Source: Phormidesmis sp.
GTDB taxonomy: Bacteria > Cyanobacteriota > Cyanobacteriia > Leptolyngbyales > Leptolyngbyaceae
Reading direction: 5' to 3'
DNA length: 64,000 nucleotides
Assembly (NCBI GenBank): GCA_965248535.1
Contig: CBDFJR010000005.1
Location: 320,001 to 384,000, forward strand
Position numbers and translations under genes: made by a program. This document shows positions 9,957-20,272 of this stretch, piece after piece. The stretch's first letter is position 1. Every line of letters starts with the position of its first letter. A model generated the notes under the pieces. The model was not told the DNA's origin. It did no database searches and saw nothing but the letters and a program-made list of their open reading frames with translations.

Positions 9957-10818
9957 TCAACCCAAAAGCTGCTGAATCATGCGATTTGACTGCGATTCAT
10001 AGCTGCCGCCAAACAGGTTAAAGTGATTGATAATGTGATAGAGATTATAGAGAGTTTTTCGAGACTGATAGCCACTTTCTAAGGGGAAAGTCTGGTGATA
10101 ACCTTGATAGAATTCTCCCGGAAATCCCCCAAATAATTCTGTCATTGCTAGGTCAACTTCCCGATCGCCCCAATAGATCGCAGGGTCAAAAATCACAGGT
10201 TCACCTGATTGAGTCACGGCAGCATTGCCTGACCACAAATCACCGTGAACGAGAGCAGGCTGAGGCGTATGTTCTAACAGTTTGGGAATGGCAGACGAGT
10301 AAGCGATCGCCCTGGGGAAAGTGTCCACCTTTTTGTTGCGCTAGCTGAAGCTGATAGCCAATTCGATAACGGGTAAAAAAATCACACCAGTCCGATGTCC
10401 AGGTATTAATTTGAGGAGTTGCCCCGATCGTGTTGTCTCGCTCCCAGCCAAACGCCGTCGATTTTTTGACTTGGTGAAGTCTAGCCAATTGCCGCCCCAT
10501 TTCTTCCCAAGTTTGGCTAGTGCCACGCCCCAGATCTAACCACTCTAAAACGATGTAGGCAGACTTATCCACGGTTCCCCAACAGATCGGAGCCGGAACC
10601 AAGATGGTCTCTGTCTCGCGCATTTGCTCAAGTCCCAGCGCTTCGGCGGCAAACATCGCGACCTGGCTAGCTTGATTGAGTTTGACAAAATAAGTCTGTG
10701 CGCCATCGGTGACGCGATAGCCCTGATTGATGCAGCCGCCACTGACAGAACGGCGATCGCGACTCTCAAATCTCTTCCCCGTGGATTGAGTAATGTGTTC
10801 AGCAATCTGTGTCCACAT
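9957..10818 (-). CDS. Fructosamine kinase family protein, with a frameshift near 10296
   Basis: N-half SVSGGCIN...FVKLN...FGWERDNTIG and C-half LVHGDLWSGN...FDPA...DREVDLAM are in different frames; removing one base joins DRLL-SAIPKLL. Confidence 0.85.
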
Positions 10819-12120: not shown

Positions 12121-12244
12121 GATTTGCCCAATGTTGGCGACTGCTTCATTCATCTTAATGGTCTCAAAGTCTTAAAGCGAGATTTTTCGGTCGAGAACAG
12201 GAGGACGTTAGAATATGAAGACAAGTGTTAAGAAATGTGACGTT

Positions 12245-13780
12245 ATGTCTACACAGGTTGCTGCTGACCAATCTTCTCGCGTCGTCGTAATTGGTGCCGG
12301 AATCGGTGGCTTAACGACGGCAGCTTTGTTGGCACATCGTGGCTATCAGGTGTTGGTGTTAGATCAAGCCTTAGTTCCGGGTGGATGTGCTTCGACTTTT
12401 AAGCGACAGGGTTTCACGTTTGATGTAGGCGCGACTCAGGTAGCAGGCTTAGAACCCGGAGGCATTCATCATCGAATTTTCTCTGAGCTAGAAATCGACT
12501 TGCCTGAAGCGATTCCCTGCGATCCTGCCTGTGCGGTTTTTTTGCCCGGTGAAACTGAGCCAATCAACGTCTGGCGTGATCCGCAAAAATGGCAGGCAGA
12601 ACGAGAGCGGCAGTTTCCTGGCAGTGCTCCTTTTTGGCAGCTTCTGGCGGATTTGTTCAAACATAGCTGGGCGTTTCAGATGCGCGACCCGGTGCTGCCG
12701 CCTCGCAATATTTGGGATTTGTGGCAACTCACCAAAGCCGTGCGTCCCGACACGTTGATGACGCTGCCTCACACCTTCTCAACGGTCGGAGATGCCCTAC
12801 GCGGATATGGGTTGGGTGACAATCAGCGCTTGAGAACCTTTTTAGATTTGCAGCTTAAACTCTATTCTCAAGTTAACGCTGAGGAGACGGCTTTGCTTTA
12901 TGCAGCAACCGCTTTGGGCGTTTCGCAAGCGCCACACGGGTTGTTTCACCTTGAGGGCAGTATGCAGGTGTTGAGCGATCGTCTCGTCTCGGCGTTAGAG
13001 CGCGTTTACCCCGAAGGGGGAACTGCTGCGCAACGCGGTCACCTCCTAATGCGTCACACGGTCGAAAAGATTCACCTCCAAGCCGGAAAGCCCACAGGAG
13101 TCACGATCCGCAATCAGAAGACAGGCGAAACTTGGGTTGAACCCGCCGATCGCGTTGTTGCCAATGTCACGGTTCAAAATCTGATGCAGCTTTTAGACGA
13201 AGATGCCCCAAAAGGCTATCAGCGTCGAGTTGATAAGCTGCCTCCGTCTTCTGGCGCATTCGTCATTTATTTAGGCGTTGATCAGTCGGCGATTCCTGAT
13301 CACTGTCCGCCACATCTGCAATTTTTATATGACTATGAGGGCGCGATCGGAGAAAACAATTCTCTATTCGTCTCAGTCAGCCATCCTGGAGATGGTCGCG
13401 CTCCTGACGGCAAAGCGACGGTGATCGCGTCGTCCTTCACCGATTCGGCACTGTGGTTTCAGTGCGATGACTATGAGGCGTTGAAGAAAAAATATAGTGA
13501 GGAAGCGATCGCTCGTCTCAGCCAGTTCTTTGATTTAGAGGGCACGATCGTTTACCAGGAAGCCGCGACTCCTCGGACGTTTCAACACTTTACGGGGCGC
13601 GATCGCGGTGCAGTTGGCGGCATTGGTCAGCGAGTGCCAACGTTTGGCCCGTTTGGATTTGCCAATCGCACCCCGATTAAAGATCTGTGGCTTGTAGGTG
13701 ACTCAACTCATCCCGGTGAGGGCACGGCGGGCGTGAGTTATTCGGCTTTGACTGTGGTGAGGCAGATCGAAGCGGAGTAA
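12245..13780 (+). CDS. crtD: Carotenoid C-3',4' desaturase CrtD
   Basis: GAGIGG FAD motif, FDVGATQVAGLEPGGIH, GDSTHPGEGTAGVS. Confidence 0.85.
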   Translation: MSTQVAADQSSRVVVIGAGIGGLTTAALLAHRGYQVLVLDQALVPGGCASTFKRQGFTFDVGATQVAGLEPGGIHHRIFSELEIDLPEAIPCDPACAVFLPGETEPINVWRDPQKWQAERERQFPGSAPFWQLLADLFKHSWAFQMRDPVLPPRNIWDLWQLTKAVRPDTLMTLPHTFSTVGDALRGYGLGDNQRLRTFLDLQLKLYSQVNAEETALLYAATALGVSQAPHGLFHLEGSMQVLSDRLVSALERVYPEGGTAAQRGHLLMRHTVEKIHLQAGKPTGVTIRNQKTGETWVEPADRVVANVTVQNLMQLLDEDAPKGYQRRVDKLPPSSGAFVIYLGVDQSAIPDHCPPHLQFLYDYEGAIGENNSLFVSVSHPGDGRAPDGKATVIASSFTDSALWFQCDDYEALKKKYSEEAIARLSQFFDLEGTIVYQEAATPRTFQHFTGRDRGAVGGIGQRVPTFGPFGFANRTPIKDLWLVGDSTHPGEGTAGVSYSALTVVRQIEAE

Positions 13781-13809: not shown

Positions 13810-14094
13810 TTGACGGTGATGAATCTTCCTCCTCAGCTACAGCAAAAAGTTGAACAATGGTCAAATTTGCAGGGAATTGAGCCAGAGCAATTCATTATGG
13901 ACGCGATCGCCGAGAAAGTGAATCGGCTCGATCTGCAACAACCCAAACTTCTTTCTGAACCTAGACTCTATCGAAAAAGCGGTGTCTTAGTTGTAGAAGC
14001 TGGATGGGATGAGGACATAGATATTAACGAATTTATTGACCGTTTGCGTGAAGAGCGGAATCAGGAGATATGGGCGGGTGAAAGTTCTATTTGA
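13810..14094 (+). CDS. Putative antitoxin
   Basis: Small acidic protein overlapping a downstream PIN gene. Confidence 0.6.
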   Translation: MTVMNLPPQLQQKVEQWSNLQGIEPEQFIMDAIAEKVNRLDLQQPKLLSEPRLYRKSGVLVVEAGWDEDIDINEFIDRLREERNQEIWAGESSI

Positions 14095-14513
14095 TACTTC
14101 TGTTTTGGTTGCCTGCACTTGTGGTAGAGCATCCTCGGCATTCCGTTTGTTTTCCCTGGCTCGAACAATCGAGACAACAGGAAATTCAGGCATTCATCTC
14201 GACTCATACATTAGCTGAAGCATATTCTGTATTGACAGGTACTCCTACTCGATCGCGGATTTCTCCGGCGGTTGCTCAAGAACTGCTGACAGATTGCTTG
14301 CGATATTTTGAAGTAGTTTCTATCGATGCTGATGATTATCAAGCAGCGATCGCTCAAATGGTCGCACTGAACCTACCAGGCGGTGGAATCTATGACGCAC
14401 TGATTGCACAGGCCGCTCTTAAAGGTAATGCAGAGGTCTTACTGACGCTAAACGCGAAGCATTTCACTCGATTGGGAGATACGATCGCGCCTCTCGTACA
14501 AACTCCACAGTAG
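14078..14513 (+). CDS. PIN-domain (VapC-type) toxin, with a frameshift near 14113
   Basis: GTG start gives MKVLFDTSVLVA; continues in the next frame as ALVVEHPRH...HTLAEAYSVLT...IYDALI...LLTLN. Confidence 0.8.
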
Positions 14514-14553: not shown

Positions 14554-16227
14554 CTACAACCGCCAAAGTGTTTTTAGACAGTTGATAAGTTTTATCTGCC
14601 GTCGATCAATAACTATTGATGTCCACTCTTCATCATGAAGCACTTGTGTTGTTAGTGCAAAAGGGCAAACTCCAGAGCTTGTAGTGAAGTATTTCTTCTT
14701 CTTTGTCCCGAATTCATAGTTCTGTGACTCACTATTTTTTGCACGCGAGAGCAAAACTAAGTTACCTAGACGATGAACATACTGCTGACGAATTTCTTCA
14801 GTAGGAAACCACTGCATCCATTCACTTTCGCTTGCCGGATTTTGGGGCAATACGTGTTCAACTGTAATAATGCGATGATCATAAGAAGCTTCGCCTGTGG
14901 AAAGTTCAGCATCCAAACGTAGCAAAACATACAGGCGAATTCTTCGAGCTAAATAGAGATCACCATTAAGGTTTCGTAAAATATTGTGCTGTTCTTCAGA
15001 AGTCAATTGAAGAGGCGAGTCTACTTGAAATAAGTCTCCCTCAGCGTTGATCGCGCTCAACAAACGGCTGAATCGTTCGATTCGCTGATTGATGTTTGAT
15101 CGTTGAATCATCAGACCTGCGGCAAGCCTCTCTAAGTCTGTGAAAAAACGAATAAGCAGATCAGAATCGTTGCGATATTTTGACAGAAAAAGGATCGCGG
15201 GTGGCACCCAATCAGAACTATCGACCCAGTTCAGCCACTTGAACAAGCTGTTGACTTTCTCTGCCCGTCGATCGCTCTGATAAGTTAACGTGTAAATTTC
15301 TTGAAAGGCATCAGCAAGGGGACAAAGAATCTCATCGATAAATTTCTGAGGGTGCTCGGTTGGCTTTACGTGCTCACGAAATTCTTTGATCACGCTGCCA
15401 GCAGGTTTTGCCTTGCGATAAATCATGCGAATGTGAGAGAACAGGCCTTTGAATTGCTCTCTGCCTAACCTCTCTTCAGTGTCTTCCCATCGAATTGTGT
15501 ATTTCTCTTGGTACTGTTCAGGGAGTTTTCCAATGACCTCAGCTTTGAGAATGTCTGTAGGGGATAGATCGAGTCCTCGATCATTCATGACTGAGAATAT
15601 TCGATAGGCAGAATCAGAATCGGGTGTGGTGACGACAACTAGGAAGCATCTTGTTGCAATGAACTTTCCCAAGCGGATGCGCTGTGATTCTGATATTTGT
15701 TCAAGTCTAGATAGCAGTTTGTTTGCATTATCTTTGATATTGCATTGGCTATCGGAGAGTCCGTTAGAGTTTAAGATCTTGAGCTTGTCAACTCCATTCT
15801 CGTCTTGAATGTATTTTCTGAAAAACTCTTTATCTCGATCGCGCAAGGTTAAACGATAATGCTTCTCTACCCCAGCAAACGAGTCCTCTGGCTGACAAAG
15901 ACGAAGTGTTATGCCACTTGCGAAATCGGAAGGTACTAATGTTCGCAGTGCTGATAACAGGATCGTTATGGTTGTGAGGCGCTGCTGACCATCCACAACT
16001 TCAGAATCACGCTCAGTTCCCTTAATCAGCACAATGCTGCCAAGAAAATAGGGATCATTCTGATCAATTTCTTCGCTACCATCGCCCAAAGCTGTGATAA
16101 GGTCATCTAGCAAATCTTCAGATTGCTCAGTCGTCCAAGCATAGGGGCGTTGGTAGCCTGGAATTTTGAAGGTGAATTCATCACTAAAAACTTTGTAGAG
16201 GGGATATTCAGCAGCTTTAATAGACAT
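14554..16227 (-). CDS. DUF262 + DUF1524 (HNH) protein, GmrSD/SspE-like restriction nuclease
   Basis: IPGYQRPYAW, VVDGQQRLTT, FSVMNDRGLDLS; EHVLPQ...HRLGNLVLLSRAKNS. Confidence 0.88.
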   Translation of the reverse strand: MSIKAAEYPLYKVFSDEFTFKIPGYQRPYAWTTEQSEDLLDDLITALGDGSEEIDQNDPYFLGSIVLIKGTERDSEVVDGQQRLTTITILLSALRTLVPSDFASGITLRLCQPEDSFAGVEKHYRLTLRDRDKEFFRKYIQDENGVDKLKILNSNGLSDSQCNIKDNANKLLSRLEQISESQRIRLGKFIATRCFLVVVTTPDSDSAYRIFSVMNDRGLDLSPTDILKAEVIGKLPEQYQEKYTIRWEDTEERLGREQFKGLFSHIRMIYRKAKPAGSVIKEFREHVKPTEHPQKFIDEILCPLADAFQEIYTLTYQSDRRAEKVNSLFKWLNWVDSSDWVPPAILFLSKYRNDSDLLIRFFTDLERLAAGLMIQRSNINQRIERFSRLLSAINAEGDLFQVDSPLQLTSEEQHNILRNLNGDLYLARRIRLYVLLRLDAELSTGEASYDHRIITVEHVLPQNPASESEWMQWFPTEEIRQQYVHRLGNLVLLSRAKNSESQNYEFGTKKKKYFTTSSGVCPFALTTQVLHDEEWTSIVIDRRQIKLINCLKTLWRL

Positions 16228-16334
16228 CCGTATAAATTTTCTCAGGGAAGCATTATTGGTTACGTTTCTGTAATCAATGGTGGCTCATTTTCACTTAAAT
16301 GTCACAGTTTCTGAGAAGCACGGTTATTGGAATC

Positions 16335-16442
16335 CTCAAGTACGTCACAGTACGCCTCTTCCTCCAGCGCATCGGCGGTCGCTATCGCTTTATTCACAAG
16401 CTTTTGCAAGAACACTTTGCAGGAATGAGGGGTGAGGGATGA
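16335..16442 (+). repeat. NACHT-protein 3'-tail remnant, copy 1
   Basis: Translates LKYVTVRLFLQRIGGRYRFIHKLLQEHFAGMRGEG*; no parent gene. Confidence 0.75.
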
Positions 16443-16490
16443 GAAACTGGGCAAGGTAAACTAGAGTGAATCCTTACTGCTAGAACCGCA

Positions 16491-16706
16491 ATGCAAGTCA
16501 AAGATTTAACGACCGACGAACTTAAGACTTTAATTCGCGAAACCGTTCTAGAAACCTTAGAAGCGTTTCTGGATGACCCCGATGAAGGCAAAGAAATTCG
16601 TCCAGAAGTAAAACAACAACTGATCGACTCACTACAGCAGACACGCACCGGAGAACGCGGAATTCCAGCAGCAGAAGTCGCCAGAAAACTGGGCTTGTCC
16701 TGGTAA
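16491..16706 (+). CDS. Antitoxin (RelE partner)
   Basis: 71 aa, TAATG overlap with the toxin, ends EVARKLGL. Confidence 0.8.
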   Translation: MQVKDLTTDELKTLIRETVLETLEAFLDDPDEGKEIRPEVKQQLIDSLQQTRTGERGIPAAEVARKLGLSW

Positions 16707-16966
16707 TGGAATACACAGTTGAATTTAAGGCTGCGGCACTTTCCCAACTAGAACACATTAGCCAGAACAATCAGAAACGAATCCTTCGTAAAATTCGTTG
16801 GCTCACAGATAACTTTGAGCAACTCACGCCCCAACCGCTCACAGGGGAGTTAAGTCGTCTATTTAAGCTGAGAATTGGTGATTATCGCGCCCTCTACTCC
16901 TTCGATGAGGAAACCCAAATCATCACCTTCCATCGCATTGGGCACCGCAGCGAAATCTACTTGTGA
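16706..16966 (+). CDS. RelE/ParE family toxin
   Basis: LTGELSRLFKLRIGDYRALY...IGHRSEIY. Confidence 0.9.
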   Translation: MEYTVEFKAAALSQLEHISQNNQKRILRKIRWLTDNFEQLTPQPLTGELSRLFKLRIGDYRALYSFDEETQIITFHRIGHRSEIYL

Positions 16967-16980
16967 GACAGCGCCTCCAA

Positions 16981-17112
16981 TTTCTCCACTACGCCACCGA
17001 TCGCCTCTTCCTCCAGCGAGTCGGTGGTCGCTACCGCTTCATTCACAAGCTCTTGCAAGAGCACTTTGCAGCGATGAGTGAAGTTTCCGCTCCGCTTCGC
17101 GAGGAGAGATGA
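16981..17112 (+). repeat. NACHT-protein 3'-tail remnant, copy 2
   Basis: Translates FLHYATDRLFLQRVGGRYRFIHKLLQEHFAAMSEVSAPLREER*. Confidence 0.8.
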
Positions 17113-17152
17113 GGAATTAAACTGAGAAAGTTAGAAGTTCTCGAAAAGCAAG

Positions 17153-17413
17153 ATGGACGTTAGTAAAGAAAGCCAACAACCCTCGATCGACCCCTCTCAA
17201 TCCCCAGCAACAGTGGATGAACCATTGAGAGCGATCGCCTACAGTATGGATGTCCTGATTCCAGGCTTTTATCTCTGGCTCGGTGCCTTCAAACTTCGCA
17301 TCGGTGGCAGCCTGCCAGAAACGACCTATCCTGGCACACTCCATAGCTTTGCTGGCATTTCCGTTGTTTTACCAGGCTATCGAATCTACACAACCTATCA
17401 CGGCAGTTATTGA
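17153..17413 (+). CDS. Hypothetical protein (first of a coupled pair)
   Basis: 86-aa ATG ORF overlapping the next ORF. Confidence 0.65.
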   Translation: MDVSKESQQPSIDPSQSPATVDEPLRAIAYSMDVLIPGFYLWLGAFKLRIGGSLPETTYPGTLHSFAGISVVLPGYRIYTTYHGSY

Positions 17414-17640
17414 CCCTCGATAAACACAAAATCGATGGAGTGCCCCAAATTACCGTGAGAGTTTTGCCAACCGAAGAGTTCGACGCACTGCTGATACAAG
17501 CTGGATACCGCAAGATTGGATCGGCTCCTGCTCAAGGAAACCGCATCAAAAGCGGGTGGATTCATTCAACATTTGCCAGAGTCGAAGCGATTTACAGCCC
17601 AGACGGAACCCTAGCAATTACCGCATATCACATCACTTGA
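17410..17640 (+). CDS. Hypothetical protein, loosely HicA-like
   Basis: 76 aa; FDALLIQAGY...QGNRIKSGWIH pattern. Confidence 0.6.
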   Translation: MTLDKHKIDGVPQITVRVLPTEEFDALLIQAGYRKIGSAPAQGNRIKSGWIHSTFARVEAIYSPDGTLAITAYHIT

Positions 17641-17667
17641 TAGAGAATTACTGAGTACCCCACATAA

Positions 17668-17814
17668 CGCCTCTTCCTCCAGCGAGTCGGAAAACACAAC
17701 GTGTGGCGAAGCTTTCGCGATGCCCTCGGCTCTCGTTTGTGAGTTCGCTTCATTCACAAGCTCTTGCAAGAACACTTCGCCAAAATGGAAAAATCGGGAC
17801 GATCGTCCCCGTGA
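17668..17814 (+). repeat. NACHT-protein 3'-tail remnant, copy 3, with an internal insertion
   Basis: RLFLQRVG-[insert containing a stop]-RFIHKLLQEHFAKMEKSGRSSP*. Confidence 0.75.
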
Positions 17815-17848
17815 TATCTTGACTCCATCACCCCACCCACATTGAGCT

Positions 17849-18085
17849 ATGAACCCCTCTCAACCCAAACAGCAATTTACCGCAATCATTGAACGAGAAG
17901 GTGATGGATATGTTGCGCTCTGTCCTGAACTGGATATTGCAAGTCAAGGTGACACCGTAGAGCAAGCTAAACAGAATCTCACCGAAGCGGTAGAGCTATT
18001 TTTTGAGGTTGCCGACCCTTCAGAAGTTAAGAGACGCTTGCGAACCGACGTGTTTATTACCCGATTGGAGGTCGCCGTTGGGTAA
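17849..18085 (+). CDS. hicB: HicB family antitoxin
   Basis: FTAIIEREGDGYVALCPELDIASQGDTVEQAKQNLTEA. Confidence 0.9.
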   Translation: MNPSQPKQQFTAIIEREGDGYVALCPELDIASQGDTVEQAKQNLTEAVELFFEVADPSEVKRRLRTDVFITRLEVAVG

Positions 18086-18302
18086 GCTTCGCGTGTTATC
18101 AGGGCAACAAGTTTGCCGCATTCTCGAAGAACAGGGGTTTATTGAAGTTCGGCAAAAAGGCAGCCACATCATCATGCAGTTTGCAACCGATGAGACGACT
18201 GTGACGGTTCCAATACCCAACCATTCAGAACTTCGTACTGGAACATTACGCTCCATCATTCGCCAGTGCGGTCTTCCTCGTGAATTGTTTGAGGTGACTT
18301 AG
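18078..18302 (+). CDS. hicA: HicA family toxin
   Basis: TTG start MGKLRVLSG...GFIEVRQKGSH...PNHSELRTGTLRSII. Confidence 0.9.
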   Translation: MGKLRVLSGQQVCRILEEQGFIEVRQKGSHIIMQFATDETTVTVPIPNHSELRTGTLRSIIRQCGLPRELFEVT

Positions 18303-18313
18303 CCAAGTTTCTA

Positions 18314-20272
18314 TCACCGCCCCACAATTTTCTTCCACGCTGCAATCTGAAGTTGAGCTTGAGCATAGGCATTTGTGCGCGGCGGAATCTTTTGAGCCGT
18401 CACGATCGCGCCCCCCATATCCGTGTCTGCTTGGCTAATAGCCGCCTGCAAAATTTGCTGACTCCACAGCCCGATCGCTTGCTCAGCCTCACTCCTTTGA
18501 GGACTCGCACCCGGAACCCCATTAGCCAACCGAATCGCTTCAACAAGGGAATCAGGAGTGCCACCATTGGCTGCAATTTTGGCTTGCTGAAGGCCTTGTT
18601 CGGCTTGCTGTCGGCGCTGCCAAGTTTGCAACTTTGATTGAGCATCGTCATAGATTGCGCTTTTAGAGCCGATGCTTTGAGTAAGCGCGATCGCGCCAGG
18701 TAAATCACCTGACTCAGCCAACCTGTCGGCCTGACTCAAAATCGGCGCATCTTGCAGTTGAGCCAACTGACGATTCCACTGTCTGATTCGGTTTTGGGCC
18801 TCTTTATAGAGAGTCCGACCTGGCCCAATCTGGCTAGCCTGATCCATTGCAGTTTGCAGGTTGGCAATATCACCGCGACTCGCAAACTGATCGGCTTGGT
18901 CGAGCAATGGACGGTCTTGCTGAGTTTGCATTTGTCCGCTCAGATCGGTCGCGAGTTTTTGCGCTTCCTGAGAGCGAGGATTGCTAGACGGCACCAGAGA
19001 CGCTTGAGCGATCGCTGCCTGCAAATCTTCAGGTTTGCCCGACTGAGCCAACTGGCGCGCTTTCTCTAACTGAGCAATGTCGCCCTTCTCTGATTGCCAG
19101 CGATTGAGAAGCGTCTGAGCTTTTGCATAAAGTGGGCGACCCATCTCGACTTTTTGAATCTGAGCGATCGCTTCTTCTAGATCAGCCACTGTTCCGCTCC
19201 AAGATTTAGCCTGAGCGCGGGCAATCACCTCAAAATCTTCGGCTTCGCGCTGCAAGTTGGCGATCGGCGGAATTTTGCTCACAATCTCCAGTGCTCCCTG
19301 CAAGTCGCGGCGGGTCAGGGTGTCTTGCGCCAAATCGAGCATTTTTTGCCCAAACTTAGCGATCGTGTCTTGCGCCTCTTGATAGACATAGCTCTTGGCA
19401 TCGACGTTAGACGCGAGTTTAATCGCCTCCAGCAGGTTAGAAACGCCGCCCCGATCGGCTAAATCTTTGGCTTTGGCAATCTTGCTGATGTCGGCGCGAG
19501 TCACGGTGATTTTTTCGGTCAGTTCTTGATATTTTGTGGTCTGCCAGAAGTTATTCTCAATGGAAAGTAACCGAGCCGCGTCAGAGGACGCTTTACGCCA
19601 ATTTTGATCGCGCAGCGCATCTTCGACTCGCCGATAGATCGCTTCTGCATCTGACCAAATCGCTTGCCAACGGGTGATGCGGGCTTCGACTTCGCTATGG
19701 ATGCTGGCGCTTTGAGGCACCTTGTGAGCAGTGGCGATCGCGTCACCCAACTTGCCCGCGTTAAACGCATCATCGCCCAACTGCAAAATCTCGGTTGACC
19801 ACTGCTCAATCAGTCGCGAAGACTCTTGGTGCAGGGGGTGATCGGGGGGCAAACTGTTGAGAAGCTGAATCGCCTCTAGCAAATCGTTGACCGTTTGCTT
19901 GTTGGCGGCCAGTTGAGCGCAGTGCAGCCGCAGCGAGGCAGAGGCCAGCGGCCAAAAAATAGCCGGACAGTTGGGCACGGCAGGCAGCTTAAACAGAAAC
20001 CCGATCGCCAAAAATGACATCCCACCCGTTAGGGCCAACCCCAAACCTGCTGCGACTCTCCAATCGGTTAAGGCTTGTCTCAGCCGCTTTTTGAAGCGGG
20101 ACTTTGAGAGATTCTGAGACCCCGCAGAACTGGACTGAGATGCCACGATCGCCTCTAAAGGCTGGCTCGGTTGATGCAGAGACAATGACTCTGGGGAGGG
20201 TAACTCAAAGGGGTTCCCTGGTTTTTGCGATTTGGGAAGCCGCCGATCTGGAATGCCGCGATCTCTAGTCAT
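18314..20272 (-). CDS. Membrane-anchored helical-repeat protein (family often labelled chromosome segregation ATPase)
   Basis: TM segment, LPAVPNCPAIFWPLASAS motif, repeated A..I..W helices. Confidence 0.75.
   Translation of the reverse strand: MTRDRGIPDRRLPKSQKPGNPFELPSPESLSLHQPSQPLEAIVASQSSSAGSQNLSKSRFKKRLRQALTDWRVAAGLGLALTGGMSFLAIGFLFKLPAVPNCPAIFWPLASASLRLHCAQLAANKQTVNDLLEAIQLLNSLPPDHPLHQESSRLIEQWSTEILQLGDDAFNAGKLGDAIATAHKVPQSASIHSEVEARITRWQAIWSDAEAIYRRVEDALRDQNWRKASSDAARLLSIENNFWQTTKYQELTEKITVTRADISKIAKAKDLADRGGVSNLLEAIKLASNVDAKSYVYQEAQDTIAKFGQKMLDLAQDTLTRRDLQGALEIVSKIPPIANLQREAEDFEVIARAQAKSWSGTVADLEEAIAQIQKVEMGRPLYAKAQTLLNRWQSEKGDIAQLEKARQLAQSGKPEDLQAAIAQASLVPSSNPRSQEAQKLATDLSGQMQTQQDRPLLDQADQFASRGDIANLQTAMDQASQIGPGRTLYKEAQNRIRQWNRQLAQLQDAPILSQADRLAESGDLPGAIALTQSIGSKSAIYDDAQSKLQTWQRRQQAEQGLQQAKIAANGGTPDSLVEAIRLANGVPGASPQRSEAEQAIGLWSQQILQAAISQADTDMGGAIVTAQKIPPRTNAYAQAQLQIAAWKKIVGR

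Follow-up and report, generated by a model that had tools for sequence, protein, structure and literature searches.

A short region of a cyanobacterial genome, positions 16335-18302 of a 64,000-nucleotide (nt) window from Phormidesmis sp. (320,001 to 384,000 of contig CBDFJR010000005.1, assembly GCA_965248535.1), carries three orphan 3' ends of a NACHT gene, here called tails, each followed by a compact pair of genes on the same strand. Comparable arrays of tails and toxin-antitoxin modules occur in related cyanobacteria, where a long NACHT reading frame commonly stands at their head. The explanation that we consider probable is that such arrays arise by serial displacement and exchange of the 3' end of a gene at a membrane-NACHT immune locus, through recombination inside the conserved tail. 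In what follows G000 denotes the genome to which the window belongs, other G numbers the genomes of relatives, L numbers extracted loci, and X3 a public sequencing run of a related organism.

The tails were defined by a repeat search of the window, which paired 16335-16429 with 16984-17078 (95 nt, 84% identical) and resolved two three-copy families, a 37-nt 5' block at 16339, 16988 and 17654 and a 43-nt 3' block at 16385, 17034 and 17745. A 35-nt IUPAC consensus of the 3' block has three matches in the 64-kb window and none in each of 100 shuffles. The full extents, all on the forward strand, are 16335-16442 (tail 1), 16969-17112 (tail 2) and 17654-17790 (tail 3), and a profile hidden Markov model (HMM) built from four tails of the genome scores the first two at 73 and 77 bits. 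Tails 1 and 2 translate to RLFLQR(I/V)GGRYRFIHKLLQEHFA, then 7-14 residues, then a stop codon; the end of tail 1 reads LKYVTVRLFLQRIGGRYRFIHKLLQEHFAGMRGEG. In tail 3 the repeat search and the HMM find two halves, at 17654-17690 (ending in RLFLQRVG) and 17746-17790 (reading RFIHKLLQEHFAKME… and matching the consensus). The motif peptides RLFLQRVG and RFIHKLLQEHFA are parted there by a 55-nt insert (17691-17745), which contains an in-frame stop. This insert has no second copy in the genome or in the relatives' loci compared, and is probably a deletion scar. The original prediction had described three diverged direct repeats, each translating to the same motif and a stop and each followed by a different two-gene module; repeats and modules are as described, whereas the translation holds for copies 1 and 2 and fails for the interrupted third.

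Module 1 consists of a candidate antitoxin of 71 amino acids (16491-16706), RelB-like by position, and a ParE/RelE-family toxin (16706-16966; ParE_toxin PF05016, 47.1 bits, cut-off 23). The smaller gene matches no Pfam or NCBIfam family, and its close homologues in the arrays of relatives always stand before ParE. Tail 2 begins a few bases past the ParE stop and precedes module 2, two genes arranged like a toxin-antitoxin pair: gene A (17153-17413, 86 amino acids, with a hydrophobic stretch) and gene B (17410-17640, 76 amino acids), which overlaps its end. Neither matches a Pfam or NCBIfam family. Both reading frames are kept in G000, G007 and G004, and the 131 homologues of gene B are all 'hypothetical' where named and, again where named, cyanobacterial; a predicted complex of A and B received a score of 0.00, which weighs neither for nor against binding. 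Module 3 pairs a HicB-like antitoxin candidate (17849-18085), assigned by its position upstream of HicA and matching HicB_lk_antitox, UPF0150 and DUF7387 only below threshold (17 bits, cut-off 27), with a HicA toxin frame (18003-18302; HicA_toxin PF07927, 66.1 bits, cut-off 27, residues 34-91). Read by eye, the true start of HicA is probably a TTG near 18078 that overlaps the HicB stop. Modules 1 and 3 are classed as putative type II toxin-antitoxin systems on the PF05016 and PF07927 matches, both above cut-off, with their partners assigned by position only; toxicity and neutralisation are predicted.

By sequence comparison, the tail is the extreme C-terminus of a membrane-associated NACHT nucleoside triphosphatase (NTPase), as had been proposed. 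The sole full-length gene in the genome that bears it (C2:154242-156161) encodes 639 amino acids, including a NACHT domain (PF05729, 39.8 bits against a cut-off of 26.7); the C-terminal half is hydrophobic, and the product ends ...IFLQKVGGGYIFVHRMLLEHFARME, the same peptide as in the orphan tails. Among full-length tail-bearing reading frames from named cyanobacterial records of other genomes, PF05729 was present in 39 of the 39 scanned; their N-termini often carry EAD1, EAD10, CHAT, caspase or kinase domains, and in nearly all of them several hydrophobic segments directly precede the tail. A profile search found the tail motif in 39/61 relatives and in 178/401 genomes sampled across the class, most matches being the ends of open frames of 500-1100 amino acids. 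Of the class-wide matches in short open frames, many proved to be full genes with a frameshift rather than isolated tails. The suggestion that the NACHT family is multi-copy does not apply to this genome, with its single tail-bearing full-length gene; the claim that the window contains no NACHT gene does hold, none of the ten PF05729 matches over cut-off in the genome lying inside it.

The genome has five tail loci in total, all at module boundaries. Besides the three tails of the window and the full-length gene on C2, a fourth orphan tail lies at C5:74489-74605. Behind it come the remains of a VapBC module, namely a VapB-like gene interrupted by an internal stop and a truncated PIN-like open reading frame (ORF) of 61 amino acids, both just upstream of glmS. 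The 61-residue frame has no Pfam match of its own and would be a PIN remnant to judge by its intact PIN-domain homologues in G007 and G002. A weak DNA match to the repeat also occurs at C2:266332 (E=0.12). Two features near the full-length NACHT gene may be recorded here. A 125-amino-acid gene upstream of it (L017:6182-6556, reverse strand, on contig C2) matches no Pfam or NCBIfam family. The motif at its end (…ISGGTVQG…TQNF) is seen again at the N-terminus of the NACHT protein, so that the gene may encode a partner or adaptor. In addition, a gene for a 359-amino-acid tyrosine recombinase lies about 5.6 kb away (C2:161787-162389), which may be coincidence.

Arrays of the same kind are found in relatives. 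Twenty regions were examined, picked for several tail matches or for matches in short frames, and 11 of them proved to be tail-and-cassette arrays, in 10/60 relatives, a lower bound because only these 20 regions were fetched. After removal of eight duplicate loci, 14 arrays were analysed. A long (343 amino acids or more), in part broken, NACHT reading frame heads eight of the 14; full-length NACHT genes in relatives precede the same modules as those in the window. The window array is headed instead by a GmrSD-type restriction endonuclease gene (14554-16227, reverse strand; GmrSD_N 142.7 bits, GmrSD_C 92.5 bits), in the position taken by the body of the NACHT gene in relatives, and this junction of GmrSD with tail 1 is common to the window, G004 and a contig from run X3. 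In G010 a full NACHT gene is followed by an 81-amino-acid gene, RelB/ParE, a DUF6883 gene and an HTH/PIN pair, with a tail behind each of these four cassettes, the last tail being degenerate; in G002 a full NACHT gene is followed by VapBC, a tail, RelB/ParE and glmS; and in G018 a tail stands between a ParA-like/ParB_N pair and MazF, half tails separate MazF from PIN and PIN from RelB/ParE, and the 81-amino-acid gene comes last.

Cassettes in these arrays belong to the families RelB-like/ParE, AbrB-type VapB/PIN, HTH_17/PIN, MazF, BrnT/BrnA, DUF6883/DUF4926, Uma2 and HicAB, together with the 81-amino-acid gene and the unknown pair of the window. The class-wide sample added a three-tail array with UPF0175/DUF3368, a nucleotidyltransferase, RelB/ParE, HicB and PIN_3. 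RelB/ParE, the 81-amino-acid gene, AbrB-type VapBC and the unknown pair recur in different orders, loci and genera. Toxin-antitoxin families are enriched next to tails: in the named loci they account for 17/124 ORFs starting within 1 kb downstream of a tail, compared with 4/150 ORFs more than 2.5 kb away (Fisher P=0.0009), where DUF433/DUF5615 was counted as a toxin-antitoxin pair after the PIN-COG2442 pair named in PMC3834315.

Several other arrangements were seen around tails in these loci. In two genomes the head of the array (L050:1404-3442 and L175:3716-5739) consists, in place of NACHT, of a ParA-like (AAA_31) gene together with the next gene downstream; this neighbour matches ParB_N/Rho_N in L050 and no Pfam family in L175, and its stop codon abuts the first tail. 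L174:30-1244 is an ORF that ends in a 'NACHT C-terminal Cys/His' domain (PF22730); directly behind it come a tail fragment and a long array of toxin-antitoxin genes, from which it follows that tails also stand behind other kinds of NACHT gene end. In L049, L050 and L055, from three genera, G-rich runs of the type GGGAGTGGGGAGTAGGGAGT occur just past the stop codons of many tails.

Comparison between orthologous and related loci shows that cassettes have been reshuffled and that the breakpoints fall inside tails. G004 has a single tail in place of tail 1, RelB/ParE and tail 2 of the window. In G007 a truncated NACHT gene is fused to a copy resembling tail 2 (90% identical to it), followed by the unknown pair at 91% identity. 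At the glmS locus a full NACHT gene is present in G002, and a tail alone in G000 and G007. One X3 contig is approximately 97% identical to the window over 15900-16420, from GmrSD through the tail core, and diverges right past the core; a second joins a different tail and about 300 nt to the right flank of the array at 18305. The X3 contigs demonstrate presence only, because their depth is low. Two further low-depth contigs, with joints from 17077 to 17765 and from 17794 to 16333, were considered as recombination intermediates and rejected; they are about 91% alike and were read as other strains.

The arrays are also polarised, the tails decaying from 5' to 3'. The best HMM score belongs to the 5'-most tail in 13 of the 14 arrays, with a monotonic fall in 12; leaving out one doubtful array the figure is 12/13 (P=3e-4 under random order). 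In G010, for example, successive tails score 68, 59, 40 and 26 bits, followed by a degenerate fifth copy. Where a tail is split, the split resembles the scar of a deletion: in G009 the inserted sequence matches the vapB/vapC junction of a VapBC cassette (28 nt, 93%, E=3.5e-4).

The divergence among orphan tails is almost solely synonymous, with a ratio of nonsynonymous to synonymous substitution rates (dN/dS) of 0.03-0.04 at dS 0.5-1.3. With the tail of a full-length gene from another genus the C5 orphan shares 92% identity, compared with 84% or less with the other tails of its own genome. From the synonymous divergence and the closeness of the C5 tail to other genera we infer that each tail evolved in a working gene and was imported separately; to judge from these sequences the tails would not be products of duplication in place. 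Between 78 and 82% of 2756 ordered pairs drawn from 53 full-length genes align over the 30-150 nt before the stop, compared with 12-20% of the same pairs over the membrane region and 40% or less over the NACHT domain. The tail thus appears to be an island of DNA homology within the NACHT family, and the length of the orphan fragments is about that of the island.

Under serial displacement, the incoming segment would comprise the last ~35 codons of a NACHT gene and a small toxin-antitoxin module, recombined into the locus via the tail. Each arrival would shift the older tail and its module downstream, where the tail would decay. Tails would then be fossil gene ends from once-functional NACHT genes, and neither mobile repeats nor recombinase sites. 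They would keep the locus recombinogenic, such that units could be gained, lost and swapped among arrays, loci and genomes. The recombination route is likewise conditional, candidates being homologous recombination, single-crossover integration of excised circles, and homology-facilitated illegitimate recombination after DNA uptake. In the window the body of the NACHT gene would have been lost, or replaced by the GmrSD gene. Toxin-antitoxin modules are probably over-represented through their resistance to loss, or addiction. The original prediction, which is borne out in part, had cast the NACHT 3' end as a homology anchor in an integrase-free system of cassette capture. The anchor agrees with breakpoints inside tails and with the lack of an att-like core, although its mechanism is conditional and no intermediate was present in the contigs. 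'Capture' implies a system dedicated to it, but tails that decay from 5' to 3' look like the scars of passive displacement. 'Integrase-free' holds in cis, but small tyrosine recombinases lie near tails in five Nostocales loci and elsewhere in the genome in 5/5 array-bearing relatives searched.

Several observations weigh against serial displacement. The modules do not depend on tails: RelB/ParE stands away from tails in 10/16 matches (6/16 in tail arrays) and the 81-amino-acid gene in 11/16 (5/16 in tail arrays). If the first tail is still part of a gene under selection, polarity is to some extent trivial, and in orphan-headed arrays alone it is 4/5 (P=0.11). The loci behind the homology-island comparison were chosen by their tails, which inflates the apparent conservation of the tail. 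Tails 1 and 2 are only 84% identical, with a longest shared run of 17 nt, and would be a poor substrate for RecA-type recombination today; the island, at ~120-150 nt, only equals or falls short of the lengths of anchors in homology-facilitated illegitimate recombination. Displacement is read from relatives because the window has no intact NACHT gene, and several arrays, namely those in the window, in G004 and in G007, are not independent because they are orthologous. Finally, the recombination step is one that we infer, and the contigs from public runs gave no intermediate or circle.

An unlikely alternative, if the best surviving one, is that tails are attachment sites. Non-autonomous cassettes would be moved by a tyrosine recombinase encoded in trans, the 3' end of the NACHT gene being duplicated with each integration, as happens with elements that insert into gene ends, and the array in G000 would be a frozen relic. 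Integration of this kind would yield both the polarity and the duplicated gene end. It is favoured, to the detriment of displacement, by five Nostocales loci (L081, L085, L103, L111 and L143) in which a small (184-218 amino acids) PF00589 gene lies downstream of a tail and no more than 1 kb from it, by a short unscored ORF in L076 that aligns with the recombinase of L127, and by the presence of small recombinases in all five array-bearing relatives searched. However, the enrichment near tails (5/124 near ORFs compared with 1/150 far ORFs) is not significant (P=0.09), the near-tail recombinases of Nostocales fall into three unrelated subgroups, and in the five relatives none lies on the contig of the array. 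G000 has no close homologue of the small recombinase (best match 25 bits); its five PF00589 matches are all in frames of 323-423 amino acids, none of them in the window. Nor do the tails resemble a recombination site. Among 92 distinct tails, codon positions 1 and 2 are ~90-100% conserved and third positions 43-92%, the longest run being 2 nt at ≥95% conservation and 5 nt at ≥90%; the 5' ends of fragments are spread over ~60 nt. Folding of each of the three copies as single-stranded DNA, for either strand, gave results no better than those for shuffled sequences (z +0.2 to -1.6), and the repeat search of the window found no terminal inverted repeats of the tail copies.

No tail-derived direct or inverted repeats were found around the Nostocales recombinase genes. 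Repeats of other kinds occur at two of these loci. The recombinase gene of L085 is flanked by a 26-nt direct repeat that has no relation to the tail. In L103 (752-1065, Nostoc) the NACHT stop is separated from the gene for a 193-amino-acid tyrosine recombinase by a 222-nt segment with a 46-nt inverted repeat (85% complementary) on each side, a layout resembling that of an invertible switch.

It is improbable that tails are functional parts of the modules, either as a translated peptide of 26-49 amino acids or as a regulatory element, in DNA or RNA, that is selected together with each toxin-antitoxin pair. Such a role would explain the protein-like constraint among orphan tails, and open frames of 47, 49 and 26 amino acids do cover tail 1, tail 2 and the C5 copy, several starting at an ATG inside an RMFLQ motif; moreover, the spacer behind the tail travels with the downstream module. 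However, distal tails decay through stops, inserts and truncations, as in tail 3 of the window and the tails of G007 and G004 with their stop codons. The tails also lack promoter or terminator by consensus scan, Rfam has no family in 15500-19000 at E up to 1, and no stable fold was seen. The same modules are found without tails, the homology of tail-less copies to the window being limited to the coding module (16486-16959, module 1), and a low dN/dS is equally expected if tails diverged inside functional genes before displacement.

More improbable still, the tails could be the remnants of three tandem NACHT paralogues that decayed by independent deletions. NACHT pseudogenes are common, with frameshifted or truncated copies in G007, G011 and several other loci, and the contrast at glmS between the full gene of G002 and the lone tail of G000 would fit such loss. 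Yet the fragments all represent one and the same 3' piece, nothing else of a NACHT gene is left between the modules, fragments begin right past the stop codon of the preceding toxin, and G000 and G004 differ by one whole unit.

A MITE (miniature inverted-repeat transposable element), an integron attC site in a cluster of attC sites lacking an integrase (CALIN), or a template/variable pair of a diversity-generating retroelement is scarcely credible, for although ~100-nt direct repeats between same-strand cassettes, toxin-antitoxin pairs among them, do resemble large chromosomal integrons, the genome has only five copies, all at module boundaries and without terminal inverted repeats in the search, rather than the dispersed set of a MITE; the folds are not attC-like, Rfam gives no match and the window contains no integrase; and the differences between copies are codon-structured, at third positions, involve all bases and are not adenine-specific, no search for a reverse transcriptase having been made.

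The array belongs to a variable island. The last base of the array is the last of the HicA stop codon, and a convergent gene of 652 amino acids (18314-20272, reverse strand), which bounds the array on its right, lies 12 nt further on. To the left, just upstream of GmrSD, 13810-14513 holds a 94-amino-acid ORF that matches no family and, next to it, a gene with a PIN domain (PF01850, 48.6 bits), and with these two genes the island extends over ~13.8-18.3 kb, flanked by an amine-oxidase-like gene (12215-13780) and the convergent gene. Further away, at 9957-10818 on the reverse strand, two adjacent ORFs each match one half of the profile for fructosamine kinase (positions 2-181 and 180-286) and may be a split or frameshifted gene.

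The closest parallels are displacement arrays at polymorphic-toxin loci. For C-terminal displacement at Rhs loci, where orphan 'tips' occur, Jackson et al. (2009, PMC2935791) proposed homologous recombination via excised circles. Rhs and CdiA arrays, like those described here, consist of an intact gene (in our case in relatives) followed by fragments of its own conserved part with differing cargo; fragment lengths vary, new units push older ones downstream, and no integrase is involved (PMC2935791). The Rhs fragment precedes a variable toxin tip which alters the protein, and the cargo is its immunity gene. In the NACHT arrays, by contrast, the cargo consists of free-standing toxin-antitoxin modules in separate ORFs, the anchor is a cyanobacterial NACHT NTPase, and the anchor protein is not diversified, because the repeated piece is its conserved extreme C-terminus, with only 7-14 residues after the motif. 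Unlike Rhs arrays, moreover, NACHT-tail arrays persist without the gene body, which is replaced by GmrSD here and by ParA/ParB_N elsewhere.

A second parallel is provided by the type VI secretion (T6SS) effector-immunity modules of Vibrio cholerae, for which Kirchberger et al. (2017, PMC5361080) describe sequential displacement and suggest homology-facilitated illegitimate recombination; the authors draw a parallel with integrons and find no integrase. As in the NACHT arrays, horizontally acquired modules are inserted beside a conserved anchor and older genes are shifted downstream, but there the retained orphan immunity genes are clearly beneficial, the anchor lies upstream of the module, and there is no duplicated gene end (PMC5361080). 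The NACHT arrays have a duplicated gene end at every junction.

Two further comparisons concern systems that do use recombinases. Integron arrays and integrase-less attC clusters are compact series of mostly same-strand cassettes with ~100-nt repeats and frequent toxin-antitoxin cassettes; in the present case, by contrast, no IntI was found, there is no attC hairpin, and the repeats are coding-derived, with codon-structured variation. Integrative elements accrete at the 3' ends of target genes, and Xer-dependent dif modules occur on Acinetobacter plasmids, so that copies of the target flank modules devoid of a recombinase. Toxin-antitoxin modules are common cargo there too, and both systems depend on a short core site of defined sequence and on a recombinase that is known, whereas the 92 tails share no core and, in the window's relatives, the arrays have no recombinase nearby. 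Our literature searches returned no description of such arrays for NACHT or for cyanobacterial toxin-antitoxin loci. Sequential displacement as a kind of process is known; the form described here, with a NACHT family, toxin-antitoxin cargo and a conserved gene end, appears to be new.

These results extend displacement arrays from the polymorphic-toxin loci of proteobacteria to an immune family of cyanobacteria, the NACHT genes, and point to recombinase-independent accumulation of toxin-antitoxin and defence genes at one address. The tail peptide offers a simple marker for such hotspots and explains small spurious ORFs in annotation; it also suggests a natural landing site in competent cyanobacteria. 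A wider reading, which we regard as doubtful and put forward tentatively, is that the tail is a portable homology address. Toxin-antitoxin modules that bring a copy of it, and at times entire defence genes (GmrSD, for instance, or the ParA/ParB-like pairs that stand before a tail), could then by recombination alone enter any cyanobacterium with a gene of this family. If true, this would amount to a phylum-wide, integrase-free cassette system in which the immune gene stays intact and its addictive cargo guards the locus from deletion.

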